Source of the DNA: a virus
Lineage: Duplodnaviria; Caudoviricetes
Length of the DNA: 41,145 nucleotides
IMG/VR virus record: IMGVR_UViG_3300010362_000896
Location: 1 to 41,145 of that record
Reading direction: 5' to 3' (one strand)
In this document: piece after piece, positions 1 through 17,041 of the stretch
Numbering within the stretch: the first letter of the stretch is position 1
How the letters are laid out: each line of letters opens with the position of its first letter
Position numbers and translations under genes: made by a program
Notes under the pieces: model-generated
Seen by the model: only the letters and a program-made list of their open reading frames with translations
Told to the model about the DNA's origin: nothing
Databases searched by the model: none

Positions 1-296
1 GCGCAAGGGCCGTGTCGCGGGGGGGGGGGGGGGGGGGGGGGGGAGTGGGGTGGTGGGGGGGGGGGCCCGGCGGGGTGGGGGGGGGGCGGGTTTTCGGAGG
101 GGGTTGGTGCAGGGGTTTCAGGGGGGGGCGGGTTGAGGTACTCGTCGGGCGCCTCCTGGCCCGCGCCCGTATCGGGTACCGCCCAGCCGTGCACGAGCTT
201 GACCTTCTTGTTCGGCTTGGGCGCCCAGCCAGGCCGAATGCGGCCCGGTAGCTTGGGCGTATCCTGGTCGGTGGTCAGGTAGCTCGGCGCGGCCAT
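1..296 (-). CDS. Putative virion protein, partial (runs off the window; 3' part low quality)
   Basis: ATG at 296 overlaps the TGA of the giant gene. Reads MAAPSYLTTDQDTPKLPGRIRPGWAPKPNKKVKLVHGWAVPDTGAGQEAPDEYLN before degrading into poly-G. Not in the ORF track. Confidence 0.6.
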   Translation of the reverse strand, partial: MAAPSYLTTDQDTPKLPGRIRPGWAPKPNKKVKLVHGWAVPDTGAGQEAPDEYLNPPPPETPAPTPSENPPPPHPAGPPPPPPHSPPPPPPPPRHGPC

Positions 297-3200
297 CAGG
301 CGTTCTGCGTGGTCAGTGCTCCGGTTCGCTGACCGGTATTCAGATCAGCCTTGACGGTCGGCGCCTGGGCCTGGCCCCACTGCCGCTGGGACTCCTGCCA
401 GAAGCCCTCGGGGGTCTGGCCGAAGAGCCCGCCCATCATCTCCATGCCCGCGCGGCCCGCCTCGCCCGCCGCTGCGGCCTGCATCCTGGTCACCTCCGGT
501 GTGCCACCCTCGGCCGCGAAGTTCTCGCCCATCTGCTGGCCGACGGCTTCCCAGACGCCAGGCCCGAGCGACTCGATGTCGGTCCGATAGGCCGCCCGCT
601 GGAACGGGTCCCAGCCTCGGAACTGCTGGTAGCTGGGCAGGCCGTAGCTCGCGCCGTAGGCCGTCGAGCCCTGCATCTCCTGCGCCCCCGCCGCATTCTG
701 GCCAAACAGTTCGGTGGGCAAGCCGCCCTGTGCACCCTGTGCGGCACCCGTCTGCGCCCCGCCCACGGGCTGCGCGGGCGGCTGGTAATTGCCGACCGAG
801 CCAGGGCCCATGCCCAGGTACGCAGCGTTCTGCAGGCCGTACTTGGTCTCGTTGTACGGCTGCATCAGAGAGTTGACCAGCTTGGCGATGTTCTGCCCGG
901 CCACTTGCTGGCCCTGGTAGCCAGGGCCTGGGGTCATCCCCGCCAGCCGCTGCAGCCACGGATTCTTGAGCGCCGAGTCGAGAATCTTGAAGCCCATGTC
1001 CTGCCTGGTCTGCCAGTCCTTGAATGCCTGGTCGCCCTGCTGCAGGTAGATCTCGGTGCCGTTCTCCATCTGCGTCTGCCACCGCCCGAGCGCGTCCTGC
1101 ATGGCCGCGATCTGCAGATCGGCGTCGATGCGCCGATTGTCGATGGCCTCGGCGGCCTGGTTGTGGCGCGCCGTCTCGGCGTTGATCTCCTTCTGGCGCT
1201 CGTTGTCGTCCTGGTGGATCTTCCAGTTCTGGTCGATCTTGGCCAGTTCCTCGGCGTGGCGGTTCTCCTCGTTGATCCTGTTCTGCTCGGCCGTGGCGCG
1301 GTTGGCCTCGCGCTGCGCGTCGAGCGAGCCATTCCAGTACGCCAGCAGCCCGTTCTCGTACGGGCCCAGCTTGGCCTGGTACTGCGCGGGCGCCTGCGGC
1401 CCACCAGGACCGGCGGGCTTGGGCGCGCCAGGCTGACTGGGCTGCTGCGGTGCGCCCTGATCGGGCGGCAGGCCCTGGTTGTGCTCGGTCACCCAGCGCG
1501 TCTCGGCGTCGGCGCCAAAGGTGTCGCGGAAGCGCTTCTGGGTCTCGGGGTCCTGGCTGGCCAGCGACTGGCCATCGCGCGCGACGGTGGCGCTGCCGTA
1601 CTGGCCCGTCGGCTGATCGACGTACTGGCTGCTTTGCGGGTCACCCGAGCGGTTCGGCTCGCTCGACGAGGCGCCACCCAGCGTCGGGCTCTGGCTCGGG
1701 TCGCTCAGGTTCGAGCCGCCGCTGTCGCTCGGGTCGGCCAGGTCCTCACGCCACTTGCCGTTGACCATCACGCCGCCCGCGCCCATGCCGCCCCAGCCGC
1801 TCCGGTCGGCGCCCGCGCCGATGTTCCGGTCCTCGCGCCGTTGCGGCTCCTGAGTCTGCGGTCGATACCACTCGTAGCCAGGCTCGTCGGGCAAACCGGT
1901 GTCATGACCCAGCCGTCTGAGCCAGGCGACGTAAGCCTGGTGTTCGAGGTCCGACTCACTGCCCCACGGGTCGAGATCGCCGCCGAAGCGGGGCGGGTTG
2001 GTCGCCTCCTCGACGGGCACGTCCTCCACCTGCTCCCAGGAACTCGCGTTCGGGCGGTCGCGCATCGTCGACAGCATGCGCCGACCGCCCTCGAAGTAGC
2101 CCGTCTGTTGTTCCTTGAGCGGCGTGTTGGGGTTCGAGCCGTACGCGTATGCACCGCGCATCTCGGGCGGCTGATAGCGCGCCTGCTCCGCAGAGTTCAG
2201 CAGGAAGCCCTGACCCGCGTCGATCAGCCAATTGATCTCTTCGTTCGAGAAGCGCGACTCACTGGGCTCGGCAGGCGCGGCGCCCGCGCCGACGCCCTGG
2301 CCTGCACCAGGCTTGCCCCACATCTTCCACAGCGGGAGATGCAGCGGCTCGCCCGCCCCCTGCATGTGCTTGTACTCGGGCAAGTTGCACACGTCGCACT
2401 TACCCTCGTTGGTCAGGGAGTCGTAGGCGTGCTTGGTCGGGTCGAGGTTGGGTACCTCGTCCTGGCCTGCGCCTTGCATTGGAGGAGTGCCAGCCGCGCC
2501 AGGCGGAGAACCGGAGCCGCCTGGTGGCCCCATCATTTGAGTGCCAGGAACGGGTGGGAGACCGCCCATGGCACCGAGTGCGGGGGTGGGATCCTGCGGC
2601 TGGCCCGTCTGGTCGCGGATGGCCCAGTGCAGGTGTGAGCCCGTCGTGTTGCCACTCGATCCTACCTCGGCCAGGTTCTGCCCCTTGGCTACAACGAGCC
2701 CACGGTAGGCTTGTGTACTGCGCAAATGGCCCAGTTTGTGCTGATTGCCCATGCCGTCGCGGATGACCACCGTGAGCCCCAGGCCCTGCGGGTCCTCGCG
2801 CACCTCTTCGACAATGCCGTCGACGGGGCTGATCGTGGGCACGCCCTCCTCGGCCTGCAGATCCACGCCGCTGTGGAATGGCTCGCCCTGGTTCATCGGC
2901 TGGCCGAAGCGGTGGCCGATGCCCTGCACGTCGGCGGGCGACACGGGCGGCTGCCAGCCTGGCTGTTGCTCGGCCCCGCCCGTCGGCGGCGGCGCGCCCT
3001 GCGGCTGCTGCACAGGGGTGGGCGGCTGGACGGGGTTGGGCGGCATGGGCGGCTGCTGCGGCGCGGCCTGCGCCTGAGCCTGCTGGGGGATCCCCTGTAG
3101 CTGCATCGGCGGCGCCTGGGGCAGCATGCCTGGGCCCGTCGGCGGCGGGCCGGGGATCTTCGGTCCGCCCTCGCCCTGACCCGCGCCGAGCGTGTCGGGC

Positions 3201-6200
3201 AGCGGCAGCCTGTCGAAGCCAGGCACACGGAAGTCGATGTTCGGCCCGAAAACGTTGGGCTTGATCGGCACGTCCCAGCCGGGTTGGTGACCGCCGCGCG
3301 AGACGATCTGCGGGCCCTCCTGGTGCTGGGTGATGGTGCGGTCGTAGATGGTCGAATTGGGGCTGGAGCGCCTGCCCAGGTTGCCCAGTTCCTGGCGCGC
3401 CGCCTCGGGGTTCTGGCCGCGCCCGTACAGCCGCTGCCACGTGTTCGGGTCACTCGTCTCGGGGATGCCTCGGGGCTCAGACTGCAGCCACTCGGCGTCC
3501 TGACCACCAGCGGGCACGTCGCTCATCGGCTCGCGCATCGGGTCGTCCAGCGGGTCGACGTACTCCCGCTCGCCCGTGCTGAAGCCGCCCGCTGGCGGGT
3601 TGGTCAACCCTCCACCGGACATAAGCTCGTAGTCGTAGTCGGGTCGGTCGCGCAGGCGCTGCGGGTCGGCTCGATCAGCCTGCTGGCCAAACTCGCCCTT
3701 GGTCGTACCCTCACGGAAGGCGCGGTTGGTCTCCTCCTGACTGAGCGGCGCGTTGGGGTTGGCCGAGCGCCAGCCCTGCTCCTGCAGCCACTGGCGGTAG
3801 GCGTCCATCATCTGCTCGCCGCCAAACTTCAGGTCGCCGAAGCGCGATTCGTAAAAGCCAGGCTGAGCCATCATCCACCTGATGAACTCCATCGGCACCT
3901 GGCTCCACGGGTTGCCACTGGGTTCCTCGGCGCCCGCGCCCACGTCGTGGCCCGTGCCCAGCCGCTCGTCGGCTTTGCGGAACCACAGCATGTTCATCAG
4001 GGCGCTCGGATCCCTGTCGTCGAAGATGCTCACGTAGCCGGGCGTGTTGATGCCTACCTGGTTGCCTGTCCACTCTCCCTGCCCCTCGCGTGGACCGTAC
4101 ACCACGTACGGCGGCTCGGGGTTTTCCTCGGTCCCGCCCAGGTTCTGGGTGTACTCGGGCGGGCTGGCCGAGCCGCCTTGTGCCTCGTGCATCCTGCGCG
4201 CGCCTTCGGCCCAGCGCGGAGGCGGCGGATCGACGTTCGGACCCTCTAACTCGAAGGTGCCCCGACCAGGTGCATCCTTTGGACGCATGGGCTCAAAAGG
4301 ATCCTGCTCGGGCTGATAGCCAGGCATCCAGCCACGTCCCCTGAGCGTGTCCATGTACCAGCGCATCAGGCGGTTGAACATCTCGGGCGACAGGTCCCCC
4401 ATGGGGCCCGCGCTGACCCAGTCGGGCAGCTTGATCTCAGGACCTGGAATGTGCCCTGGCGGCAATGGAACGGGGATGCCCGTGTTGATCAGTGGGCCGG
4501 GCGGTTTGACCTCACCGCCCCAGTCGGGGCCATGCCCGCCAACGGGCTCTATTTTGATCTCGGGCGCATGCCCCTTGGGCACGAGGTCGGGGTTGAAGAT
4601 GGTTGAGTTCTGGCTTGCTTCGCGGCCCTGGCGGGTCAGGTCCTGCCAGGCGAAGCCAGGCGCCTGGCCGCGCCCGTACAGGCTGGGCAGGTTCGGGAAG
4701 TCCTCGGGCCGCACGCTGGCTGGCGAGCGCTTGGTGCCAGGGATGTCCTCATCGGCGCTCGGGATGTCGAACTCGGCGCCACTAGCCGGGTCATCAAACT
4801 GGACCAGTTCCGAGCGCTGCCCGCCAGCGGGGATCTCGCCGTGGAGCATCGTACTGTAGGGCTGGTCGCTCACGTTCTCGGGCTCGCCGCGCCTGATGCG
4901 CGCCAGGGCCTGGTTCTCCTGCTCGTTCAGGAGCAGTTGCTGGCGCTGCGCCCAGACCGCCTCGCTCGGTTGGAGCGGCGCGCTGGGGTTCTGAGCACGC
5001 CAGTTCATCAATTGCAGGAACTCGGGCAGGCGCGCGTCCAGATCGTCCTCGGTGAAGCCCTGGTGCCGACGCTCCCAGTTGTCAGGCTGGGTGACGAACC
5101 ACGCCAGGAACTCGCTCGGGTACTGCTGGCCACCGCCGCCGCCCCCACCTGGCGGCTCGTCCTGGCCCGAGCCCAGTCCGCCCGTCTGCTGGCGACGCAG
5201 GATCATGTCGATGAACCCGCGCGGGTCGCCCTCGTCGAAGATGCTGACCACGTCCTGGCTGTACGGCTCGCCGCCTGGCCCAAAGCCCTGCGACTGGTAG
5301 TTGCCAGGCCCGCGCCCCTGACCCAGGCTCTCCCAGGTGCCAGGCTCGGGTTTCGTCCGCCAACTGCGCATTCCTGGCTCTTCCCCCGGCTGGAAGGTCC
5401 ACGGGTTGCGTGAGCCGCCCTCGGCCGCCTGCACGTCGGGCTCGACGCGCATACCGCGTGTGTCACCTGAGCGCATCTCGGGGTAGTCCTGGGCCAGGAT
5501 GTCGGGCTGGGTCATGCGCCACTTGTGAAAATCGGCCAGCCTGCCGCCCGTGCCCGTAATGTTCGCCTCACCCTCGCCGCGCATCTCGGCGCGGAACTCG
5601 TTCATCGCCTGCTGGTAGAGCGGATCGTACGGCTCCTGGCCTGGGCCTGGCGAGCGGGGCACATCGGATTTGTTGAGGCCCAGGATGTCGGGTACCCAGT
5701 TGGTGCCGATGTCCGTGGCGTCGGGCAGCTTGACCTCGGGGCCAGGTACGTGTCCGGTAGGCAGCTTGGGCACCCAGTTGGTGCCGATGTCGGTTGCGCC
5801 TGGGCCCACGCGCGGGGCGACGTTGATGAGCGGTCCAGGCGGCTTGATCTCGCCCTGGTTGATGATGTGGCCGCCTGGTAGCTGAACTGGCTCCTGGGCG
5901 TTCTGCCTGCCCTCGGGACGGCCCTCGGGCGAGATGATGTGCCACGGGTCGGTCTGGTGACTGTTCTCCCACGGCGTGCGGTCGGGCTGCGGCTCCTGCG
6001 GCGGCGGCCACTGCGGCGCCCACGCGCCAGGCACGTCGGTCGCGGGCTGCTGGCCGCGCATCGCCGCCCACACCTCGGCGTAGATGTTCTGGTCGGACGA
6101 CTGCCACTCGTCGAAGTTGCTGGGCACCTCGGTGTGCAGACCGGGGTACAGTCCGAAGAGCCGCTCGGCGTTGGTCAGCGCGCCCGGGTCGCCGCTCGAC

Positions 6201-9079
6201 CGTTGCTGGCCGACCTCCATGCCCTCCTGGAAGACCTCGCCCGGGTTGCGGCGGCGAGTGTACTCGGGGTCGCCGCGCGTGCTGAACTCGGGGTCGTTCG
6301 GGTCGCGCGGGTACTGCGTGTCGCTGGTCAGGTCGCCCGCGTCGGGTGTGCGGTGCGGGTACTCGACGTTGCCCTGTTGTTGCGAGCTTTCGCTCATGCC
6401 CTGCTGGAACGGGGTCAGGTCGGCCGCGCCCTCCATGTTCCCGCCGCCACCCCCAGCGGGCCCCGCCTGGAAATTGGTGTAGCCCTCCTCGGGCGGCCTG
6501 CGCTGGGGTAGCTGGTTGGTCGGGTCGCGCAGCAGGTCGCGGATGTAGTCGGCGAAGCGCTGCTGGTCGATATCCCACCAGTTGCCTTCCATCGGGTTGA
6601 GCGGTCCGCCAGGCACATCACCTTCAGCGCCCGCGCCAAGGGGGTGGGGGGAGGGGTAGGGATCCCACCCCACCCCCGTCGAGCCACGACCCGTCTGCGG
6701 GGTAAGGCCCCGGCCCGCAAAGGTGTCCTGGCCCGCGCCTGGAATGCCGTAGTCCCCGTACTGCTCCTCGGGGATCGGCGTGACGTCGTAGTTCCAGTCG
6801 TCGGTGATGTGGACCTGTTGCCACTGACCGGTGTCTGGATTCTGCTCGTTGTACGGGTCGCCAGGTCCCCACTCGCGCGGTTGTGCGGGGGCAGCAGGCG
6901 CGGCGGGGGCGGCGGGCGCGGCAGGCGTGGGCTTGGGCGCTGGGGCGGCAGGCGCGGCAGGCGCGGGGCGCGGCGCGGGCGTGGGCTGGGTGACCTTGGG
7001 CGGCGCGGGGCGGTCGGCGGGCTTGTAGCTGGCAATCTGCTCGCCGATCTGGCCGCCGAGGGAGCGCATGAAGTTGGCGGTGTCGGTGATCTCCTGGGGC
7101 AGCGGCAGCCCGCCCGCGTGCTCGACGCCCTTGCCGCCGTAGCCGCCGTAGTCGATCTCCATCGACGTGCCAGCGGGAATGATCAGGTTGCCGCCCAGCA
7201 TCTCGGGCTTGGGATGCTCTAGCTCGTACGCCGACTTGTACATCTCGCTGAGCGACTTGATGTTCCCGATCCGGCCCGTGATCAGGTTCTGCTGGGCGGT
7301 GTCCAGATCGGAGTACGCCTTGGCCAGCTTGGTCTGCTCGGTCTGCTCCCAGAACGGGTCAGTCGAGACGACCTGCATCGTCGCGGCGGGGTCGCGCGGG
7401 TCCCATTGGTAGGTCACCCCGTTGAGCGTCTCGACGTGCTTGTCGGCGGGCGCCGAGTAGATCACCGTCGGAATGATCGGGCTGGTTGGATCGTCCGGGT
7501 TCTGGCGCGTGAACTTGACCACATCGCGGTTGCCGACGGTGATCGTGCCCTTGCTCAGGTCCTCCTGGCCGACGACCTGGGCCTGGCCCGTGTTGGTGTT
7601 GAGCAGGATGAACCGCCCGTCAGGCTGCGCGGTGAGCGTGTAGATGCTCGCCGTGGCCAACTGGGTCTGCGATGCCAGCCGATCCTTGGCCGCCTGATCG
7701 TCCGCCTTGCGCTGCTCCTCGGCCGCCCACGCCGTCTGGGCGCGGTTGGTCAGGTTCTGGTCGACCTCGGTCGTGCCGTCGGCCTTGACGCGCTGCCAGA
7801 TCTGGTTGGCGCCGGTGCCCTCGACGAACACGTGGCCAGGCGTCTTCAGCGGCGGCGCGCCAGCCGCGCCAGCAGGCGAGATGCCCAGGTCGGCGACGCG
7901 CTTGCCCGCGTCGTTGAACATGATCGCGTGACGCTGGCCGTCGGGCTCCAGGATGTCGACGATGTGCGCGCCTGCCTTCTGGGCATCGGGAATGCCCTGC
8001 AGTTGCGCGCGCAGCGCCTCGTTGTACTGGACCAGGGTCAACTGGTGCGTGTTCGGGTCGACCGCGAAGTAGCCGACCGGAATGTCTGGCTGACGGCCCG
8101 TGCGGTCGTGGTAGCGCACCTGCTGTGCGACGTGCGTCACCGGGTCGCGGTCGACGTACAGGTCCCACTCGTTGAGGCTGGCCACGACGCCCGACGCCTG
8201 CAGCGCGGCGCGCGCCTGGTTATCAACGGCCGTGGTGTCGGGCGAGCCTGGCGGACGGGTCGACGGCGCGGCGGGCTGGGTCGGGTCGGGCTGGCTCTGC
8301 GACGGCACGGTGCCGCCGCTCTCGACCGTGTCCAGGCCGCGATACACGCCTGGCGCGGTCTGGTCCTGAGCGGGCGGCCGACCCTCCTGGCCCGCGCCGA
8401 AGGTCGCCCCGTTGCCCATGTTCGTCGCGCGCGCGCCAAACGGCCGTTCGGTCGGTCCGCTGGCCTGGATGCGCGGCCCCGGCCCCGTGCCGTACGGCGT
8501 GGGCGTCAGCGGCGGCTGGCCTGGCGAGAACTGGTTGGCCCTGATCGGCGCCTGCTGGCCGTAGCGACCCGTAATCTGGTCCATGCCAGGCTGCGTGCCA
8601 GGTCCCGCTGGCGCACCAGGCGTGGCCGTGCCCGTCTGGCCCGCGTTGTACGGCTGGGTCGCCGCCGAGTACGCTCCGGGAGCTATGTTCGGGGCAACTG
8701 TCTCAGTCGTTGGGCCGGCTACATCGGTCCGAATGGGCTCCGCGCCAGCACCCATCTGGGGCGGCAGCAGGTACTGCTTGAGCCAGTCGCCTGCGCCTTG
8801 CTGCTGTTGCTGGCCGTCCTCGCCCTGGCCCGCGCCCAGGCTGTCCGACGTGGGCACCAGGCTGTAGTTCAGGCGGTCAACGGGGGCGAGGGTGCCAGGG
8901 CTATGCACCTCGGACGTGTCGGGCGTGTAGTTGATCAGATTCATCGGCGCGGGCGTGCCAGGCGGGCTGGCCATGACGTGCGGCTGGGGGTACTCCAGCC
9001 GGCTCATGCCGACTTCGTGCAGCAGGCGGTCGCGGGGCGTCTTGCGCGGCTTGGGGGGCGGGTCCCAGAAGCTAGGCAT
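296..9079 (-). CDS. Giant (2927 aa) putative internal virion/ejection protein with M23 metallopeptidase domain
   Basis: Uninterrupted 8.8 kb ORF downstream of the portal. M23 motifs HSGVD and GSSGNTTGSHLHW (about 2580-2925). C-terminal helical region with EENRH/ETARHN. Beta-rich region at about 7100-8220. P/G/Q-rich linkers. Confidence 0.8.
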   Translation of the reverse strand: MPSFWDPPPKPRKTPRDRLLHEVGMSRLEYPQPHVMASPPGTPAPMNLINYTPDTSEVHSPGTLAPVDRLNYSLVPTSDSLGAGQGEDGQQQQQGAGDWLKQYLLPPQMGAGAEPIRTDVAGPTTETVAPNIAPGAYSAATQPYNAGQTGTATPGAPAGPGTQPGMDQITGRYGQQAPIRANQFSPGQPPLTPTPYGTGPGPRIQASGPTERPFGARATNMGNGATFGAGQEGRPPAQDQTAPGVYRGLDTVESGGTVPSQSQPDPTQPAAPSTRPPGSPDTTAVDNQARAALQASGVVASLNEWDLYVDRDPVTHVAQQVRYHDRTGRQPDIPVGYFAVDPNTHQLTLVQYNEALRAQLQGIPDAQKAGAHIVDILEPDGQRHAIMFNDAGKRVADLGISPAGAAGAPPLKTPGHVFVEGTGANQIWQRVKADGTTEVDQNLTNRAQTAWAAEEQRKADDQAAKDRLASQTQLATASIYTLTAQPDGRFILLNTNTGQAQVVGQEDLSKGTITVGNRDVVKFTRQNPDDPTSPIIPTVIYSAPADKHVETLNGVTYQWDPRDPAATMQVVSTDPFWEQTEQTKLAKAYSDLDTAQQNLITGRIGNIKSLSEMYKSAYELEHPKPEMLGGNLIIPAGTSMEIDYGGYGGKGVEHAGGLPLPQEITDTANFMRSLGGQIGEQIASYKPADRPAPPKVTQPTPAPRPAPAAPAAPAPKPTPAAPAAPAAPAAPAQPREWGPGDPYNEQNPDTGQWQQVHITDDWNYDVTPIPEEQYGDYGIPGAGQDTFAGRGLTPQTGRGSTGVGWDPYPSPHPLGAGAEGDVPGGPLNPMEGNWWDIDQQRFADYIRDLLRDPTNQLPQRRPPEEGYTNFQAGPAGGGGGNMEGAADLTPFQQGMSESSQQQGNVEYPHRTPDAGDLTSDTQYPRDPNDPEFSTRGDPEYTRRRNPGEVFQEGMEVGQQRSSGDPGALTNAERLFGLYPGLHTEVPSNFDEWQSSDQNIYAEVWAAMRGQQPATDVPGAWAPQWPPPQEPQPDRTPWENSHQTDPWHIISPEGRPEGRQNAQEPVQLPGGHIINQGEIKPPGPLINVAPRVGPGATDIGTNWVPKLPTGHVPGPEVKLPDATDIGTNWVPDILGLNKSDVPRSPGPGQEPYDPLYQQAMNEFRAEMRGEGEANITGTGGRLADFHKWRMTQPDILAQDYPEMRSGDTRGMRVEPDVQAAEGGSRNPWTFQPGEEPGMRSWRTKPEPGTWESLGQGRGPGNYQSQGFGPGGEPYSQDVVSIFDEGDPRGFIDMILRRQQTGGLGSGQDEPPGGGGGGGQQYPSEFLAWFVTQPDNWERRHQGFTEDDLDARLPEFLQLMNWRAQNPSAPLQPSEAVWAQRQQLLLNEQENQALARIRRGEPENVSDQPYSTMLHGEIPAGGQRSELVQFDDPASGAEFDIPSADEDIPGTKRSPASVRPEDFPNLPSLYGRGQAPGFAWQDLTRQGREASQNSTIFNPDLVPKGHAPEIKIEPVGGHGPDWGGEVKPPGPLINTGIPVPLPPGHIPGPEIKLPDWVSAGPMGDLSPEMFNRLMRWYMDTLRGRGWMPGYQPEQDPFEPMRPKDAPGRGTFELEGPNVDPPPPRWAEGARRMHEAQGGSASPPEYTQNLGGTEENPEPPYVVYGPREGQGEWTGNQVGINTPGYVSIFDDRDPSALMNMLWFRKADERLGTGHDVGAGAEEPSGNPWSQVPMEFIRWMMAQPGFYESRFGDLKFGGEQMMDAYRQWLQEQGWRSANPNAPLSQEETNRAFREGTTKGEFGQQADRADPQRLRDRPDYDYELMSGGGLTNPPAGGFSTGEREYVDPLDDPMREPMSDVPAGGQDAEWLQSEPRGIPETSDPNTWQRLYGRGQNPEAARQELGNLGRRSSPNSTIYDRTITQHQEGPQIVSRGGHQPGWDVPIKPNVFGPNIDFRVPGFDRLPLPDTLGAGQGEGGPKIPGPPPTGPGMLPQAPPMQLQGIPQQAQAQAAPQQPPMPPNPVQPPTPVQQPQGAPPPTGGAEQQPGWQPPVSPADVQGIGHRFGQPMNQGEPFHSGVDLQAEEGVPTISPVDGIVEEVREDPQGLGLTVVIRDGMGNQHKLGHLRSTQAYRGLVVAKGQNLAEVGSSGNTTGSHLHWAIRDQTGQPQDPTPALGAMGGLPPVPGTQMMGPPGGSGSPPGAAGTPPMQGAGQDEVPNLDPTKHAYDSLTNEGKCDVCNLPEYKHMQGAGEPLHLPLWKMWGKPGAGQGVGAGAAPAEPSESRFSNEEINWLIDAGQGFLLNSAEQARYQPPEMRGAYAYGSNPNTPLKEQQTGYFEGGRRMLSTMRDRPNASSWEQVEDVPVEEATNPPRFGGDLDPWGSESDLEHQAYVAWLRRLGHDTGLPDEPGYEWYRPQTQEPQRREDRNIGAGADRSGWGGMGAGGVMVNGKWREDLADPSDSGGSNLSDPSQSPTLGGASSSEPNRSGDPQSSQYVDQPTGQYGSATVARDGQSLASQDPETQKRFRDTFGADAETRWVTEHNQGLPPDQGAPQQPSQPGAPKPAGPGGPQAPAQYQAKLGPYENGLLAYWNGSLDAQREANRATAEQNRINEENRHAEELAKIDQNWKIHQDDNERQKEINAETARHNQAAEAIDNRRIDADLQIAAMQDALGRWQTQMENGTEIYLQQGDQAFKDWQTRQDMGFKILDSALKNPWLQRLAGMTPGPGYQGQQVAGQNIAKLVNSLMQPYNETKYGLQNAAYLGMGPGSVGNYQPPAQPVGGAQTGAAQGAQGGLPTELFGQNAAGAQEMQGSTAYGASYGLPSYQQFRGWDPFQRAAYRTDIESLGPGVWEAVGQQMGENFAAEGGTPEVTRMQAAAAGEAGRAGMEMMGGLFGQTPEGFWQESQRQWGQAQAPTVKADLNTGQRTGALTTQNA
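5694..5791. repeat. 20-bp direct repeat inside the giant gene (ATDIGTNWVP x2)
   Basis: acccagttggtgccgatgtc at 5694-5713 and 5772-5791, 78 nt apart and in frame. Confidence 0.9.
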
Positions 9080-9356
9080 CCATCAGCCTCCGTCGCGCGG
9101 CGGCGTTGATCTTGGCAATGGGCTTCCCGGTACGTCCGTCAAGAATCTCGACAGGGCCCATGCCCTCAGGGCCGATGCCGTCCCACCGTTCAATGCGCGG
9201 CTCTGGCGCACTCGATCCCACAAGGTGGGCTCGGGCAAACGCGGGCGTGCCCGGTTGCGCATCGTTGAAGACGGAGCCATGCACAGCCTGATGGATGTCC
9301 GCGTCAGGTGAGGCGTGTCGCGCATCGTGGGCCGCCTTAGCGAGGGAATCGGGCAT
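9072..9356 (-). CDS. Hypothetical protein
   Basis: GGAGGG upstream of ATG; overlaps both neighbours in the operon. Confidence 0.65.
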   Translation of the reverse strand: MPDSLAKAAHDARHASPDADIHQAVHGSVFNDAQPGTPAFARAHLVGSSAPEPRIERWDGIGPEGMGPVEILDGRTGKPIAKINAAARRRLMDA

Positions 9357-9576
9357 GGTAGCCCTCCATGTACTGGCGGATGACGTCGGCTGCCGTGTCG
9401 TCCAGCGGCAACTCGCCGTTCATGACCCGTGCGACGTAGTTACCCTGCTTCTCCCTCGCCCGGGCTGGGCCAATCTTCTTCCTGCCCAGCGGGACCGCGT
9501 TCTTGTCGTCGTGGGCGACGATCTCCAGCGCCCTCGGCACCTCGCTCATGATTCGGCGCAGGTTGGCCCCTGGCAT
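9337..9576 (-). CDS. Hypothetical protein (MPGANLRRIMSEVPRALE...)
   Basis: GGAGGAG RBS just upstream of ATG at 9576. The longer ORF-track start (9825) lies inside the upstream gene. Confidence 0.65.
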   Translation of the reverse strand: MPGANLRRIMSEVPRALEIVAHDDKNAVPLGRKKIGPARAREKQGNYVARVMNGELPLDDTAADVIRQYMEGYHARFPR

Positions 9577-10099
9577 CGCTCTCCTCCTGCTCCTGTTCGA
9601 GCATGAACAGGTCACCACCGGTCTTGTCCATGACCTTGGTGCCCAGCGCGCGCGCCAGCCGCACCAGCGGCAGGACGAGCGCCGCCCTGACCTTGAAGGT
9701 GTCGACGGAGTCCCAGTCGGGCGGCTCCTCGACGGCCACCACATACGTGTCCCCGCGCCCAACGTACAGGGCGACCCTACGAGTAGCGGACTCATGGTTG
9801 GGGAAGCGCTGCACCTCGGGGCCATGCACGCTGGGCGCGGGTCGAGTCATGATAGCCGTTGCCGAAACGGGCTCGTCGTGCACGGGCTGGTCCTCCCACG
9901 GGTGGCCGTAGTCGTGCCCTGGCATGTGGTCTTCACCACACCGGTAGCACGGCGGCTTGGGGATGCGCGAGTTGTAGCCTGGCGTACCGGGGATCATCGC
10001 CAGGCTGTGCAGGTTGCCGCTGGCGGTGCGGATGTCAGCCGACGGCGCGGGCGCGCTCGGCCGCATGGCGTTAAACAGACCGAGCGCCTCGTCAGCCAT
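9440..10099 (-). CDS. Hypothetical protein with Cys/His knuckle (CYRCGEDH...H...H)
   Basis: Starts 13 nt after the portal stop with AGGA upstream; plausible codon usage. Confidence 0.65.
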   Translation of the reverse strand: MADEALGLFNAMRPSAPAPSADIRTASGNLHSLAMIPGTPGYNSRIPKPPCYRCGEDHMPGHDYGHPWEDQPVHDEPVSATAIMTRPAPSVHGPEVQRFPNHESATRRVALYVGRGDTYVVAVEEPPDWDSVDTFKVRAALVLPLVRLARALGTKVMDKTGGDLFMLEQEQEESDARGQPAPNHERGAEGAGDRRPRRQERGPAGQEEDWPSPGEGEAG

Positions 10100-10111: not shown

Positions 10112-12088
10112 TCATCCGATCTGGCGTGTCTGTCCACGCCTGTCCGGTGGCTGATTGCCTGGCCGACCGGAGGTGCGCGCGCCGCCGAGCGAGCGAGTTG
10201 CCCGCGCCACGTCCTGGCCAGCCATGTCAGTACGCGGTACGGACACCCCGCCGCCCGACGGTGCGCCCGCCGCTGGCGGCTGCTGGGTCCCACCCTGCGG
10301 CGCCATCGGCGAGCGCGCTTGAGCCTGTTGACCCTGCTGCTCCAGCAGTTTCTGGCTGAGCGCAATAAAGCGTTCGGAATCTTCGCCAAACCAGTTCTTG
10401 ATACGCTCCAGGCCGACCTGCTCGATGACAAAGGGCAGGGCATCGACCGCCTCGCGCACAAGCTCGTCGAGCCACTCCTGGGGGTTGTCCGTGGCGCCGC
10501 TCAACTCGATTGACGTGCGGTGCGGGATCCACTTGTTGGCCTGCAGCGCCTGAAGGGCCTTCCATTGTTCGAGCATCGCGGGGTCGAGCCGTCGGCCCAG
10601 GCTGACTTCCCAGCCGTCCCAGTAGCCGTCAACGTCCTCGGGACGGATCGTGACCTCCCCCATGTCCTCGCCGTTACGGTCCTTACCCGGAACCGGAAGG
10701 GTGAGCCGATCCTGAAGGCACACTTCAAGCTGCATCGCCGCAAGCTCCAGGGCGCGTGTGATGCTGCGTACCAGAGCGTCCTTGGCCGATTCGATTTTGA
10801 GCGTGCGGATCGACTGGATGGCCCACAGTTGCTGGGCCGAGCGAGTCCCTTCGGCGCTCCGGGGCCCCTGCGCCACGCCGTTGCGCTGGATGTACTGGTC
10901 GACGACACCTGTCGTCTGGAGCAGTTCGTCAGGTACGGGCTGCCCTTCGAGCATCTGCAGGTACTCGCCGATGCGCTGGTCGATGGGGATGTACTGACCT
11001 GGCCGGATAGTAATCTCGCGCCCATCCTTGGTCCAACCGAGATACGTGCGCCAGGCGTTGATGGCCAGCATCCAGACCTGCATCGTGAGCACATTTGATT
11101 CGATGGGGTACAGCCCCGCCGCGTTGGTCAGCATGCCCCGGTAGCGCCGCTCGACGTCGTCGAAGGTCAGTTCTCGGAAGGGGACGATCACGTACGGCAT
11201 CTCGGGGTAGCCGTGCTCCGCGACGCCGCGATACGGACCCTCCCCCCCGACCTCGAACAGCGGGTGGTCGTTCAGGATCAGGCAGCGGTAGCGGCCCATC
11301 CACACGTCGTCGACGTAGACCAGTTCGTCGGGCAGCATGCCCCTGAGCGCGTGGGCCGTCTCGGCGTAGCGGTCGAAGGCGTGCAGCGCCTCGGTCTTGC
11401 TGGTCTGGTAGTGCTCGACGACCACCAGTAGCTCGCCATCGTCGGCCTCGCGCCACCTGACCACGCGCGGGTCCCGACGCTGGAAAACGATGGGGTTTTT
11501 GCGCCTGTGCCTGACTTCCCAGACCTCTTCGGGGTCGGCGTCCGACCAGGCTTCCTCGCGCGCGGCGAACTCCTCGTCGCTCTCGTCGGTCATCTGCTCG
11601 GGCTCGGGCCCGCGCGCCTCCATACCTGGCGGCTTGTGCGGCCACAGCGTGCGGTCGACCATGATGCGGAAGACCCCGACGCGCCTGATGACCATGTCGG
11701 TTGAGACCTGGCGCAGCACGTCCTTCTGCTTGCGCCAGTTGAACAGCATCGCCTTGCCGAAGCGGGTCAGCTTGTCAGCTTGCTTTCGATACTTCTGGCG
11801 GCTCCGGGCTGGCCGTACATGCACGGATACATCTGGAGGTACCAGCGAGTCGATTGCGGCGTCGGCGTCGGCAGGCGCCGAGCCCGTCTTGACTGCCAGC
11901 CGACCACCCGGTGATTCGACGTCGAACTGTTGGAAGTACAGGTCTTCCTCGCTCTCCATCGCCTCATCCAGGTCTCCCCATTCCGCCGCCAGGTGGTCGC
12001 GCCAGTAGCACACCTCCTCGTACGTCGGCTTGTCGTCGATCTCGTACCGGTACGCGCCGTCGGGGGTAACCGATTCAGGATCCATCAA
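10112..12088 (-). CDS. Portal protein (head-tail connector)
   Basis: 658 aa, coupled directly behind TerL. HGYPEMPYV...RYRGML segment resembles podovirus-type portals. Q/G-rich C-terminal tail. Confidence 0.8.
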   Translation of the reverse strand: MMDPESVTPDGAYRYEIDDKPTYEEVCYWRDHLAAEWGDLDEAMESEEDLYFQQFDVESPGGRLAVKTGSAPADADAAIDSLVPPDVSVHVRPARSRQKYRKQADKLTRFGKAMLFNWRKQKDVLRQVSTDMVIRRVGVFRIMVDRTLWPHKPPGMEARGPEPEQMTDESDEEFAAREEAWSDADPEEVWEVRHRRKNPIVFQRRDPRVVRWREADDGELLVVVEHYQTSKTEALHAFDRYAETAHALRGMLPDELVYVDDVWMGRYRCLILNDHPLFEVGGEGPYRGVAEHGYPEMPYVIVPFRELTFDDVERRYRGMLTNAAGLYPIESNVLTMQVWMLAINAWRTYLGWTKDGREITIRPGQYIPIDQRIGEYLQMLEGQPVPDELLQTTGVVDQYIQRNGVAQGPRSAEGTRSAQQLWAIQSIRTLKIESAKDALVRSITRALELAAMQLEVCLQDRLTLPVPGKDRNGEDMGEVTIRPEDVDGYWDGWEVSLGRRLDPAMLEQWKALQALQANKWIPHRTSIELSGATDNPQEWLDELVREAVDALPFVIEQVGLERIKNWFGEDSERFIALSQKLLEQQGQQAQARSPMAPQGGTQQPPAAGAPSGGGVSVPRTDMAGQDVARATRSLGGARTSGRPGNQPPDRRGQTRQIG

Positions 12089-14067
12089 TGCGCCACCGAC
12101 AGGTAAGAGCGTGGCTCATACGGCCCGCGCTGATGATAGGTGCGCATCTCCTCGATGAACATCCTGCCGCGCGACTGCGGCTGGCGCGCCAGGACCTCGG
12201 GCGGGGTGCGCTGCGGGATGACATTCTCGTCGATGTCGGGCTCGATGTGCGTATCCAGGTAGGAATAGCTGGCGGCGCCCTCGGGCTCGCCCTCAAAACG
12301 CTTTTTTACCCACACGTAGTAGCCCCACGCGTCCATCGAGTGGTTCATCCAGTCACGCGGCTTCTCCAGATAATTCTCGTTGGTCGATTTGGCGCGTTTG
12401 TCGTACGTGTAGACCTTGAACTCCTGGATGGTGTTGCTGCAGTGGCTATCGACGCGCATTCGGGCACAGGATCTGAGGTACCTGAGCGTTTCGCCCAGCA
12501 AATGCTCGTCGTTAAGTGACTCTTCGACCTGAATGACCAGGGCGCGCTGCTCGTCCTCGGGCAACAGGTGGTCGGACTCGGGTTCACAGCCCATGTCCTC
12601 CAGCAAAACGTTTACCCGGTGTCGATAGAAGCGGAAAAAGCGCACGGGGTCGCGCAATTGGTTCCTCTGGAAGGGGATGCGCTCGTAGATCTGCGGCTTT
12701 TTCTCGATGCAGTAGGCAGGGAAGCCCATGCGCTGCCAGCGGCGCATCTCCTCAGGCTGCGCCGAGTCGGTAATCATGTCCGAGATGCCTTCGATCTCCC
12801 ACTGCGGCAAGAGCGCCCCGTCGGGGCTGATCTGCCTGGCGCGCATCCACGGCCTGGAGCACAGAATCTCGGCCATCTCCTCGGTCGACCGATGAGTTTC
12901 ATAGACCTCGTCGAAGATGACGGTCATGTCCGTGTACTCCTGGATAGCCAGGATGGCATACGGGTTCGAACCGCCACTCGGATCCACGGCCAGAATGACC
13001 GGGAGGTCCGGATTGAAGTCCACGTCCGTGACGTGGACCTTCTCTTTGAACTCGGGGAAGACCCTGCTTCTCGAACTCGCGGGTATACCGCCGAACTGTT
13101 CGAGAAACTCGTATGGCTCCATCTCCTTAGCGGCCTGCGCGAGAGCAGGGGTCTGCCGGCCTTGCGGGAACGCGTAGAAATTGATCTCGTACGACGCGTC
13201 CTGGAACATCTCCCAGGCGGCCTCGGTCCCGTTCTTGTTCATCTCGGCACGGGCGTCGAGTGCCTTCTGATGGAAGAAATCGCCCTCGCCCTCCCACGAC
13301 GAGATGAGCAGCGCCTGGCCATTACGGTCCGTCAGTGGGGGCAGGATGGCCCGCGTCCACGCTTCAGGGTAGATCTGTGCCGCCTCGTCGATGATGGCCA
13401 GGTCGATGGCTGCACCTGCGGCAGTCCACACGTTCTCCAGTGAGATCCCCTCCAGCCGCGCGCCGTTGTCGAGCACGCACAGCTTCTCCTGGTTCGTGTC
13501 GCGCACGGTCCTGGTCTTCAGGCCGTGGTCGCGGACCATCTCCATGCACTTGTCGAATGCGCGCGAGACCAGCTTCATGGTCGGCGCGGCGAGCCAGATC
13601 CACGACCTCGGCCTGAGCCAGGCCACCCCGATGGCCTCCATGGCCGCCTCGGTCGTCTTGCCCCCGCGCCGCCCCCACGCGGCGATGCGGAACCTGGCCG
13701 TAGAACGAGCGAGGGCCTGCTGGCCAACCCAGTGGCCCGAAACGCCTCGACGGGCCCAGCCCTCGGTCTCGTCCTGCAGGGCATGATACTCACGTAAACG
13801 TTCGTCGGGCGTCGGCCGCTCGCCGATCCATCTGAGCCTGCGCTTCAGTTCAAGCTCGGCTTGCCCGTCCTCGGGCAGGAATAGGCCATGTGGCCTAAAG
13901 TTGAAGTGCCGGAACGCTTCGAATCGCTCTTCGGGCGTCACCGGTCGGAAGGGCGCGACGCGTGCGGCGGCGCGCTCTTCCCACTGCTTCAACCAATCAT
14001 CGGGGTTGCCCCTGCTGAGCTTCGAGAAATCGAGCCCAGCCAGGCCGTCGAGCGTGGTCTGGGGCAC
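12085..14067 (-). CDS. terL: Terminase large subunit
   Basis: Walker A AWGRRGGKT, Walker B AIIDEAA, coupling segment LLISS, RNase H-like VDPSG, C-terminal NHSMDAWGY. Confidence 0.93.
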   Translation of the reverse strand: MPQTTLDGLAGLDFSKLSRGNPDDWLKQWEERAAARVAPFRPVTPEERFEAFRHFNFRPHGLFLPEDGQAELELKRRLRWIGERPTPDERLREYHALQDETEGWARRGVSGHWVGQQALARSTARFRIAAWGRRGGKTTEAAMEAIGVAWLRPRSWIWLAAPTMKLVSRAFDKCMEMVRDHGLKTRTVRDTNQEKLCVLDNGARLEGISLENVWTAAGAAIDLAIIDEAAQIYPEAWTRAILPPLTDRNGQALLISSWEGEGDFFHQKALDARAEMNKNGTEAAWEMFQDASYEINFYAFPQGRQTPALAQAAKEMEPYEFLEQFGGIPASSRSRVFPEFKEKVHVTDVDFNPDLPVILAVDPSGGSNPYAILAIQEYTDMTVIFDEVYETHRSTEEMAEILCSRPWMRARQISPDGALLPQWEIEGISDMITDSAQPEEMRRWQRMGFPAYCIEKKPQIYERIPFQRNQLRDPVRFFRFYRHRVNVLLEDMGCEPESDHLLPEDEQRALVIQVEESLNDEHLLGETLRYLRSCARMRVDSHCSNTIQEFKVYTYDKRAKSTNENYLEKPRDWMNHSMDAWGYYVWVKKRFEGEPEGAASYSYLDTHIEPDIDENVIPQRTPPEVLARQPQSRGRMFIEEMRTYHQRGPYEPRSYLSVAH

Positions 14068-15060: not shown

Positions 15061-15945
15061 TCACGGTTTGGGCGCCTTGGTGGGCTTGGTCTCGGGCTTC
15101 CCAGGCGGCTGGCCAGGCGGGTTCTGGTTGCCAGGCTTGGGCGTCGCCGTCGGCGGCGGCACGGGCGTGGGGCGCGGGGTGGCGGTCGGCTGGGGCGGCA
15201 CGGGCGTCGCGCTCGGCGGCACAGGTTTTTGGGTGCTCGTCGGTTGCGCGGTTGCGGTCGGTGGGTTGGGTGTCGCCGTGGGGGGCTCAGGCTGCGGCTC
15301 CGGTGGCCTGGGCCTGGGCGTCTGGGTCGGTACCGGAGTAGCGCTTGCTTCCGGTACGGAAGTTCCGGTAGGCGTCGGCGTGGGCGGCTCGGCCTGCCCC
15401 CCTGAGGACGTCGGAGGGGGAGCAGGCTCGGCCGTTGCCTCGGGTGGCTCGTCAGACTCCTCTGGGACGGGTGTAACCAGAGGTTGAGGCAGTGGAGGCT
15501 CCACCTCGGCGGGCGCCTGTTCGAGCACCTCTGGCTCTTCGACGGGCGGGCTCACCTCGGGGGCTGGCTCGACGGCCAGGGAAGTGGCTGTCGGAGTCGG
15601 CACCGGAGGCGGGGGAGGCACGCGCGTCGGAGTCGGGGTGGGCGGCGGGGGCACAGGGGTTGGGGTGTCCGTCGGCGCGAGCGTCTCGGTCGGCGGGATG
15701 AGCACGGGCAGGGTGATAGCTGGCGCGGCAATAGTCACGCTCGGCTGCGGGGTGACCGTCCAGACGACCGTGGCCGTGGGCCCCACGGTCCAGGTCGGCG
15801 TGGGCGTCAAGCTCGGTTGCGGAGTCGGCTCAGGCATGGGCGGCGGGGGAGGGGGTTTGAAGGCCAGGATGAGCAGCCCCGCGCTGACACCGACCAGCCC
15901 GCCCAGACCGGTGAACGCGAAGGCGCTGAGCGTGCTGCGCCACAT
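15061..15945 (-). CDS. Membrane-anchored Pro/Thr-rich protein (PTATP repeats)
   Basis: N-terminal TM helix followed by about 260 aa of PT/PE low-complexity sequence. Confidence 0.7.
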   Translation of the reverse strand: MWRSTLSAFAFTGLGGLVGVSAGLLILAFKPPPPPPMPEPTPQPSLTPTPTWTVGPTATVVWTVTPQPSVTIAAPAITLPVLIPPTETLAPTDTPTPVPPPPTPTPTRVPPPPPVPTPTATSLAVEPAPEVSPPVEEPEVLEQAPAEVEPPLPQPLVTPVPEESDEPPEATAEPAPPPTSSGGQAEPPTPTPTGTSVPEASATPVPTQTPRPRPPEPQPEPPTATPNPPTATAQPTSTQKPVPPSATPVPPQPTATPRPTPVPPPTATPKPGNQNPPGQPPGKPETKPTKAPKP

Positions 15946-16149: not shown

Positions 16150-16307
16150 AGCAGGCGCGCCACGGCCAGCGCCGCAATCAGGCCGAAGATGGTCACCGGG
16201 GTCATCGGCACGGCGCCGACCAGCCCGACGATGGCCACGATGAGCACGACGATGGCGATCAGTCCGCCGATGGTCAAGGGATACGCTCCTACGGTGGCGA
16301 CTCTCAC
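16146..16307 (-). CDS. Putative holin (two TM helices)
   Basis: GGAGG then GTG overlapping the endolysin stop; LTIGGLIAIVVLIVAIVGLVG and VTIFGLIAALAVARLL. Confidence 0.6.
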   Translation of the reverse strand: MRVATVGAYPLTIGGLIAIVVLIVAIVGLVGAVPMTPVTIFGLIAALAVARLL

Positions 16308-17041
16308 CAGCACGCCTCCAGTTCGAGGGCCTGGGCTAGCTGATCGAACCGCCCGCTGTCCCACCACCGGTCGCCGCAACAGCTTGGCCGTGAACTGGGT
16401 GAGATCACGTTGTGGCCCATCAGGTAGCGGATGCTCGGGTAGGTGCGCAGGGCTAGCTGGCATACGGCCAGCGTAGAGCCCCACTGGGCGTCGGTCACGG
16501 GCGTGGCGCCCGAGCCGTTGTCCTCGGTCTCGACGGTCACCGTCTGGTAGTTCGGATTGCTGCCATTGCCGGTAATCGAGACCCAGTCGTTCCCCGGTTC
16601 GAGCACCCCGTTGGCCCAACTGCCGTTGGAGAGCGCGACGTACTGGTGCTGCTCGCCCGCCAGCCCGATGCCGTAGTGCGAGGAGACCTGCGAGGCGGGG
16701 TTGCGGAACCAGCTATCGCACGAGGCCAGCGTGCCCGCCATGGTGTGGATGACGATGGCGATGACGGGCCAGCCCGCTCGGCCGTGGTAGTAGTTCGGGC
16801 TGCCGATCCAGACCGGGTTGGCCTCGGGCGGCGGCGGCTCGGGCAGGTCGTAGCACGGCGCCTGCGGGCTGATCTGGCCCGTCCAGCCAGGGTTCAGCCC
16901 GTACAGGATGGCCTCCAGGCTGTCTGCGCCGTAGTCGGCGGCCGTCCAGCGGCCCTCGTTCATCGCGTTCAGGCCCGCCGAGATGGCCGCCTGCTGGGCC
17001 TGTAGCTGGGTCAGTTGCTGGATCAGGGCGGGGTCGGCCAT
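16304..17041 (-). CDS. Endolysin, N-acetylmuramoyl-L-alanine amidase (Amidase_2 type)
   Basis: IVIHTMAG, VSSHYGIG, TVETE, GHNVI...SCCG Zn-amidase motifs; extra N-terminal domain of about 60 aa. Confidence 0.88.
   Translation of the reverse strand: MADPALIQQLTQLQAQQAAISAGLNAMNEGRWTAADYGADSLEAILYGLNPGWTGQISPQAPCYDLPEPPPPEANPVWIGSPNYYHGRAGWPVIAIVIHTMAGTLASCDSWFRNPASQVSSHYGIGLAGEQHQYVALSNGSWANGVLEPGNDWVSITGNGSNPNYQTVTVETEDNGSGATPVTDAQWGSTLAVCQLALRTYPSIRYLMGHNVISPSSRPSCCGDRWWDSGRFDQLAQALELEACW

Follow-up and report, generated by a model that had tools for sequence, protein, structure and literature searches.

A recurrent glycine motif in the giant, probably internal proteins of uncultured podovirus-like phages: candidate processing sites

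Gene organization of the locus and its relatives

The DNA analysed here, called the window throughout, is the whole of a linear virus record of 41,145 bases with 67% G+C and an estimated completeness of 65%. Its terminase large subunit gene (terL, 12085-14067, minus strand) was recognized by a family match and is followed on the same strand by a likely portal of 658 amino acids (10112-12088), named from its position after terL and from viral look-alikes, one cluster of which is 12% SPP1_portal, a lead only. Three small conserved genes of 219, 78 and 94 amino acids (9072-10099, minus), motif-free in the window and without a family, separate the portal from giant protein 1 (296-9079, minus), which has 2927 amino acids, 42% of them Gly, Pro, Ala or Gln, and which we infer to be an internal virion or ejection protein. 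The start of giant protein 2 (3-296, minus) follows as a 3'-open reading frame truncated by the contig end; in relatives giant 2 has 2260 to 2810 amino acids and its cargo is glucosaminidase plus NlpC/P60, M23 or C39_2. An Amidase_2 endolysin gene (16304-17041, minus) occupies the slot that holds a C39-like peptidase in 16 of 17 related loci, and the same lysis region encodes a Pro/Thr-rich protein of 294 amino acids with a hydrophobic N-terminus and no family (15061-15945, minus).

With the portal as query we retrieved 33 viral loci at 63 to 87% identity and no homologue in a cultured phage. The fullest of these relatives are G006, which is complete with terminal repeats, G002 (98% complete) and G003 (92%). 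Their gene order starts with terL, portal, small genes, giant 1 (1400 to 2900 amino acids, with M23) and giant 2, and continues 3' of giant 2 with two small basic genes, a scaffold-like gene, an N4-gp56 type capsid gene, adaptor- and nozzle-sized genes (named from size and position) and fibres. The capsid protein matches TIGR04387 above the cut-off in G002 and G004 (71 and 80 bits against 60); its gene lies outside the window's contig. Podovirus ejection proteins are large wall-hydrolase proteins of genomes that have a portal, an adaptor and a nozzle in place of a tail tube and tape measure; the layout and the hydrolases of the relatives, with their adaptor- or nozzle-sized genes, would fit this type. 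By this layout, and by analogy with phi24B gp47 and cyanophage A4 gp28, the clade would consist of podoviruses and its giants would be internal ejection proteins. The clade has no cultured close relative, the nearest capsids being those of Streptomyces Beephvirinae at about 29% identity, and a GTDB scan gave a single marginal match (E 8e-4) that was set aside. Literature searches run on terms other than the motif letters listed no paper on the motif or the clade.

The motif in giant protein 1

The original prediction held that a GAG[Q/A] motif punctuates giant 1 at domain boundaries and recurs in the next gene as a shared signal for cleavage or docking. Its counts hold: the reading frame at 296-9079 encodes 14 GAG tripeptides, 11 of them with Q or A next and nine of these 11 with D or E within two residues, and TGAGQE is in frame in the adjacent gene (GAGQ at 167-156). 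Its positions correspond to the low ends of the GAGx tetrapeptides (8825 stands for the GAGQ at 8836-8825), apart from 1773, which is off by one. Against the 11 observed GAG[QA], the mean was 0.70 in 2000 global shuffles and 0.84 in 2000 shuffles within 50-residue blocks, and no shuffle reached 11. GAG ranks first of the 1925 tripeptides in giant 1 (Poisson p 9e-5), and GAGQ is its top tetrapeptide outside a PAAPA tandem repeat (Poisson p 2e-6). These k-mer p values fail correction for all k-mers, so that the window alone would leave post-hoc picking possible; it is excluded by the enrichment in held-out homologues reported below.

Read from its N-terminus on the minus strand, giant 1 first shows a conserved N-terminal block (8843-8995, 62 to 76% identical among six genomes) directly followed by LGAGQG at residue 81 (8822-8839), MGAGAE at residue 109 (8738-8755) and FGAGQE at residue 227 (8384-8401). 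A motif-free region of beta-meanders and helices covers residues 286-690 (7010-8224); its model (pLDDT 71, pTM 0.31) gave no fold match in PDB or BFVD, TM scores staying under 0.15. PGAGQD follows at residue 780 (6725-6742), then GWDPY at 804 with LGAGAE at 814 (6623-6670). LGSGQD at residue 1302 (5159-5176) lies within the first copy of an internal duplication, and the tandem LGTGHD-VGAGAE stands at residues 1707 and 1713 (3926-3961). The M23 metallopeptidase module (2507-2965) lies between LGAGQG at residue 1964 (3173-3190) and QGAGQD at residue 2202 (2459-2476). Further copies are the tandem PGAGQG-VGAGAA at residues 2257-2267 (2279-2311) and IGAGAD (2420) with GMGAGG (2431) at 1772-1822, at the opening of the motif-free C-terminal region. 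In two lineages of relatives the conserved motif-free C-terminal region (299-1340) is encoded by a gene of its own. When this region and the beta-rich one were used as single-sequence queries for loci, neither gave a match.

The duplication was missed by self-BLASTP and found by a chunked search, which aligned residues about 1278-1526 (4502-5248, minus) with residues about 1683-1941 (3257-4033, minus) at 30 to 45% identity. It changes how two pairs of predicted variants are to be read: LGSGQD/LGTGHD and the two YGRGQ are present as described and are not independent of each other, because they are paired copies within this one duplication. The claim that motifs surround each internal repeat module is weakened, since the variants sit inside the repeat unit. 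A putative zinc knuckle of two Cys and two His, placed after M23 by the original prediction, was seen in none of the 19 relatives listed.

Conservation of the motif across the family

For an independent estimate we de-duplicated the homologous giants to 49, leaving out the frameshifted fragment L075, and took expectations from 30-residue-block shuffles. The pattern [MLIVFYW]G.G[QA][DE] occurs 102 times in these held-out homologues against 4.3 expected, GAG[QA] 121 times against 27 and G.G[QA][DE] 138 times against 18, while patterns lacking one or the other Gly stand at 0.6 and 1.1 times expectation. The motif is kept, and its true form is hydrophobic-G-x-G-[Q/A]-[D/E], broader than the GAG[Q/A] first described. 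In these homologues A, G, T, M, S and V all occur at x, and the residue before the first Gly is mostly Met; the final position is often G in place of D or E (105 against 37). An M23 profile search of 50%-identity cluster representatives gave 50 distant M23-subfamily proteins, in which the strict motif occurs 108 times against 5.6 expected, at least one copy being present in 42 of the 50 and Val taking the place of Met before it. The control bin of other M23 proteins (n=47) has six copies against 2.3, in two carriers, and probably includes two misbinned family members (P0110 and P0144). Since sites at homologous positions are counted repeatedly, all these folds overstate the number of independent events.

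Across six genomes G.G[QA][DE] occurs 41 times in the giants against 6.6 expected and three times in all other predicted genes against 8.2, in bins where one tail-fibre gene (G001) was counted as a giant and one piece of giant 2 (G002) as other. In these genomes, then, enrichment is confined to the giant proteins, whose genes lie between those of portal and scaffold. The 147 motif sites are encoded by 107 different DNA 15-mers with background codon use, and on that ground we rejected a DNA-level repeat. Internal translation starts were rejected too: Shine-Dalgarno-like words precede 5% of the 121 motif ATG or GTG codons against 7% of 3130 others, and motif Val is GTG in 11 of 29 cases (background 44%). 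The signal shared by both giant genes is therefore one of protein, located between recognizable units, as had been proposed for either cleavage or docking. Lineages have variants of their own (VGMGQS five times in P0036, VGWGD/E in P0135, the preference for M or V), which under a cutting or a docking model imply a co-evolving reader. In 5 of 47 representatives a motif stands among the first 10 residues; nine neighbouring pairs are spaced by only six residues, and copies are mostly isolated rather than arrayed.

The leader of giant protein 2 and a second motif

In the window, TGAGQE (153-170, minus) ends a conserved basic leader of about 45 amino acids in giant 2. G-x-G-[QA] stands at this leader end in 12 of 14 relatives with a start, the others being one variant, GAGDD, and one that is out of view; a further motif follows the hydrolase pair of giant 2 in relatives, and the C-terminal half is motif-free. 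The leader also holds GWAPK (216-230, minus), a sequence match to a second motif, G-W-x-P-[R/K], which occurs 42 times against 1.3 among the close homologues; among the distant proteins enrichment is limited to G-W-x-P (87 against 25). G-W-x-P precedes a Gly motif by at most 25 residues in 36% of its cases against 13%, and W-x-P or W-x-x-P lies within the first 16 residues in 29 of 47 representatives. Written as G-W-x-P-[R/K/P], the second motif is seen at the N-termini of giants 1 and 2, at the start of the M23 module and 16 to 35 residues before many Gly motifs, with window sites at 216-230, 6656-6670 and 2945-2959. It is a candidate packaging tag.

Module boundaries and gene splits

With the motifs masked and decoys masked equally, alignment blocks begin or end at 47 to 58% of 107 motifs against 22 to 36% of decoys, an excess of about 1.6-fold, which bears out the predicted placement at unit boundaries. 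From relative to relative, the short modules that separate motifs occur duplicated and in changed order. No motif lies in three large conserved regions: the beta-rich and C-terminal regions of giant 1, and in giant 2 the C-terminal half. Giant 1 is spanned whole in 28 redundant loci, fused in 19 and split in nine; eight of the nine represent two independent split types, both at a motif, and the ninth, L075, is an error-ridden assembly that we rejected as split evidence for being frameshifted throughout. One type (G001/G005) divides directly after MGGGQE. In the other (G006/L063) the second gene begins MSMSADTLWDLY where fused relatives read GQD-SADxRWDLY, so that the natural split begins directly after Q-D. 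Each split-off gene retains motifs of its own.

The M23 domain and its bracket

The M23 module of the window was assigned by a match to PF01551 over residues 2068-2164 (E 1.9e-18, 66.9 bits against 28.7), and its HSGVD, GHL and HLH elements are intact, followed by a conserved PPVPGT tail. Its closest fold is EnpA (Foldseek E 5e-9), a LytM fold. In an AlphaFold2 model of M23, tail and motif the core reaches pLDDT 83 to 94; its flanks (residues 1-34 and 137-176) fall under 50, which makes the model uninformative on the motif. M23 is present in all eight complete giant-1 genes found via the portal, and its identity across six genomes is 64 to 71%, in contrast to the turnover of the giant-2 hydrolases.

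That motifs bracket the M23 segment is borne out in relatives: of 44 relatives, 40 have a motif in the nearest 50 residues upstream, and of 43, 38 have one in the nearest 50 downstream, against 3 to 13 in each of the farther windows (five per side). These counts use a pattern widened after the data had been seen; with a narrower pattern fixed beforehand they are 22 of 44 upstream and 18 of 43 downstream, against 2 to 7. The subfamily has natural HxH, HxD and NxH active-site variants (P0024, P0036, P0135; most distant representatives are HxD).

Search for a protease

The original prediction saw no separate maturation protease in the window, and none of the classical prohead type is found even in the complete relative G006, where Pfam covered 70 of 76 predicted genes and gave M23 and NlpC/P60 as the only peptidases; the other six genes have homologues that are annotated as replication, terminase or fibre genes. 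Searches for S78 and S49 proteases, with working controls, found none in five genomes; those for S77 and S80 likewise gave no match in five, with silent controls, and carry no information. NlpC/P60 was rejected as the motif protease, being missing in G001/G005 and L073 and without a match in G003.

Of the 17 related loci that span the slot, 16 (two are copies) carry a small C39-like gene of papain fold upstream of terL. Its Q..C, H and N-S positions are conserved, its Pfam match to C39_2 is weak (E 0.015) and it is about 41% identical among relatives. It is absent from the window, whose genome is 65% complete and may have a copy elsewhere, and from L005. The lysis slot holds the C39-like peptidase in most relatives (L016:3333-3758 and 15 others), the amidase here and nothing recognizable in L005. 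The gene is flanked by LGFP-like and GH25 genes, and a C39_2 domain replaces NlpC/P60 as cargo within giant 2 of G003. The amidase in the window's slot, L005 with neither gene and the LGFP-like and GH25 neighbours point to a lysis cassette, and the features of the C39-like gene fit an endolysin.

Comparison with known systems

T4 gp21 and phiKZ gp175 are examples of prohead-protease maturation. The clade resembles such systems, of which SPN3US gp245 with its A-X-E sites is another (PMC10052503), in that a short motif recurs in several internal head proteins, and G-[QA]-[ED] is akin to the small-X-acid sites given there. In that account SPN3US sites are clustered in N-terminal propeptides and portal and capsid are cut (PMC10052503). 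Here, by contrast, the sites are spread along the whole chain with two invariant Gly, no S78 or S49 protease was found, and portal, scaffold and capsid N-terminus are motif-free. With no protease found and with head shell proteins devoid of the motif, the clade falls outside the prohead-protease system.

A second parallel is Tal2009/TalTP901-1, a virion protein whose M23 is reported to be freed by cleavage at a Gly-rich motif; it has one site in a siphovirus tail tip, whereas the internal proteins here are podovirus-like, with 5 to 14 sites and another motif. Polyvalent proteins (Iyer et al. 2017), phi24B gp47 and N4 vRNAP are likewise described as very large, capsid-packed and modular, with an embedded peptidase proposed to release domains. 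The polyvalent peptidases are zincin-like MPTase or papain-like, 'M23' occurs nowhere in PMC5512222, and these proteins are not known to share a recurring motif. The clade shares with polyvalent proteins a large modular protein with shuffled domains in a head-packaging operon; Pfam gave no match to MPTase, MuF or LPD domains, finding only M23 in giant 1 and glucosaminidase plus NlpC/P60 in giant 2. Cyanophage A4 gp28 (PDB 9k2v) is a podovirus ejection protein with M23 and a glycan hydrolase; unlike the giants it is compact and helical, and it is not known to be processed.

The nearest cultured capsid match is that of Immanuel3, a Streptomyces podovirus of the Beephvirinae (about 29% over 55%), which shares the order terL, portal, small genes, large internal proteins with wall hydrolases, scaffold and capsid. 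There, matched by position, the slot of the giants holds five separate genes including NlpC/P60 and SLT proteins of about 430 amino acids, with lower P/G/A/Q content and no enrichment of the motif. Taken together, these comparisons suggest that the motif system resembles prohead-protease maturation or Tal processing in how it works, within a polyvalent-like design that has none of the marker domains.

Interpretation

The explanation we favour, with middling confidence, is that the motif marks cut sites which would free separately acting pieces of virion polyproteins. We prefer it because motifs bracket M23, large regions lack them, natural splits fall at them and Immanuel3 encodes separate genes; the clustered sites of SPN3US propeptides and the processing of Tal at a Gly-rich motif are precedents. 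Each giant would enter the procapsid as one mostly unfolded chain, many cargoes being brought in at once, and the basic leaders with G-W-x-P would target it there. If the motif were then cut, either as the head matures or at ejection, the wall hydrolases (M23, glucosaminidase and NlpC/P60) would come free, and so would the beta-rich and C-terminal regions, in pieces that could pass through a short tail and open a thick cell wall. The protease is possibly a host enzyme or an unrecognised phage protein. Several points tell against cleavage. Our searches found no prohead protease, and the motif often ends in G. Portal and scaffold are motif-free, unlike SPN3US with its cut portal and capsid; by analogy, N4-like and phi24B capsids are unprocessed and N4 vRNAP is packaged whole. 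The N-terminal motifs (5/47) and six-residue pairs would suit docking equally, an excess at boundaries of the size found would also be expected if modules duplicate together with a docking motif, and the sites flanking M23 may be two inherited ancestral sites.

The main rival, though less probable, is an uncut, repeated docking signal, many copies of which along the disordered chains would bind a groove inside the capsid, on the portal or scaffold, or on the LytM/M23 fold itself, and pull the giants into the procapsid. Encapsulin cargo-loading peptides, short motifs that dock to the inside of an HK97-fold shell, and the T4 capsid-targeting sequence would be parallels; a literature search on encapsulin-type loading here found nothing. 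The lack of a dedicated protease in our searches, an unprocessed capsid of the N4-gp56 type, the closely spaced and N-terminal copies, the motifs kept by each split-off gene, the lineage variants with the co-evolving reader they imply and the NxH relatives that retain the motif all agree with docking, as does the existence of protein-binding LytM domains (EnvC-AmiB is among the Foldseek matches). Docking alone explains neither the two-sided bracket of M23 within 50 residues nor motif-free stretches of 500 to 1300 residues such as the C-terminal half of giant 2. The bracket is equally unexplained if the motif serves as a sticker in the structure, or as a turn that binds metal, through which chains self-associate into an inner core or ejection conduit, a reading we consider unlikely. 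RTX repeats have such a turn, G-x-G-x-D, and the invariant Gly pair, free x, acidic end and tandem copies of period six would fit it, as would a similar W-G-x-G-A strand, conserved in the capsid protein as part of its structure; the mostly isolated copies do not. That the motif has no function and follows from a composition rich in Gly, Ala and Gln, from DNA microhomology used when modules are shuffled, or from internal starts is largely refuted, and we give it a very slight chance: modules are indeed duplicated and swapped near motifs and the hydrophobic residue is often Met or Val, but composition-keeping local shuffles give 4- to 24-fold fewer copies, and the diverse 15-mers, background codons and missing start-site signal speak against it.

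Within the cleavage reading, the embedded M23 is improbable as the protease. The idea of self-processing, raised speculatively in the original prediction, is that hydrophobic-G-x-G mimics the L-D-L-D stem peptide of peptidoglycan, an analogy inferred by us. M23 enzymes accept Gly or D-Ala at P1, and LasA and pseudoalterin cleave Gly-X bonds in proteins (PMC9662197); Gly would therefore be the only residue at which M23 could cut a ribosomal protein. EnpA, the closest fold, is reported to cut D-Ala-Gly/Ala/Ser. The intact catalytic residues of the window and the persistence of M23 while the giant-2 hydrolases turn over agree with such a role. Against it, HxH is replaced by NxH in three relatives, of which P0036 and P0135 carry eight to nine motif copies (P0135 without a second M23), and the Zn ligand switches from HxH to HxD across the family with no change of motif. 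Processing of TP901-1/Tuc2009 Tal at its Gly-rich site beside M23 persisted after mutation of a Zn ligand (PMC9692632), and in cyanophage A4 the M23 domain of the ejection protein has been interpreted as a hydrolase of the cell wall. Self-processing is thus so far unsupported. C39 peptidases cut after double-glycine-type motifs, and the C39-like gene, with its conserved residues and its presence in nearly all slot-spanning loci, is nonetheless a quite improbable protease, being absent from the window, which has the most motifs and an amidase in the slot, and from L005; its flanking genes, its divergence and the C39_2 cargo in G003 also count against it.

A bolder proposal, which we consider doubtful, makes the M23 fold a self-processing or self-reading domain: the clade would mature virion polyproteins of several thousand residues with no prohead protease, the fold reading the motif as an L-D-L-D mimic and G-W-x-P serving as packaging tags. 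If so, a two-motif code would load and unpack swappable ejection cargo. For phi24B gp47, the way in which podovirus capsids take up and let go of very large ejection proteins has been described as an open question. A strongly enriched motif conserved across more than 60 sequence clusters offers a handle on it, with sites to mutate and peptides to assay; cutting would mean a maturation route independent of any known prohead protease, and docking a natural multi-copy capsid-loading tag.

Additional observations

Residues 239-246 of the capsid protein (L037:18001-19221, minus) read K-x-F-W-G-x-G-A, with both Gly nearly invariant in 93 homologues. The element precedes an insertion domain, matches the motif core and is probably structural; an internal WGAGAA is also seen in a solved N4-like capsid (weak match, E 0.08). 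A gene of 120 amino acids (L081:15499-15858, minus, and homologues), immediately next to that of the capsid protein on its 3' side, has a conserved C-x4-C, H and C, is 47 to 66% identical and belongs to no family. The product of the 219-amino-acid gene (within 9072-10099) carries a knuckle, C-x2-C-x3-H-x6-H, that is kept in five genomes; its C-terminal domain is also conserved and matches no family, and an atlas look-up gave no usable match for it. Complete relative G006 encodes a Flp/Fap pilin-like peptide (E 2e-4, under the cut-off) and an Rpf-type transglycosylase; corresponding sites are L081:6969-7112 (plus) and L080:7078-7476 (plus). An Acb2/Tad1 hairpin domain (PF24729, E 5e-7) at L079:9988-10209 (minus), with a weak homologue in the window, is a possible anti-defence sponge. 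DNA polymerase A is fused to an N-terminal uracil-DNA-glycosylase domain in the window (40133-41143) and at L080:15005-17350.
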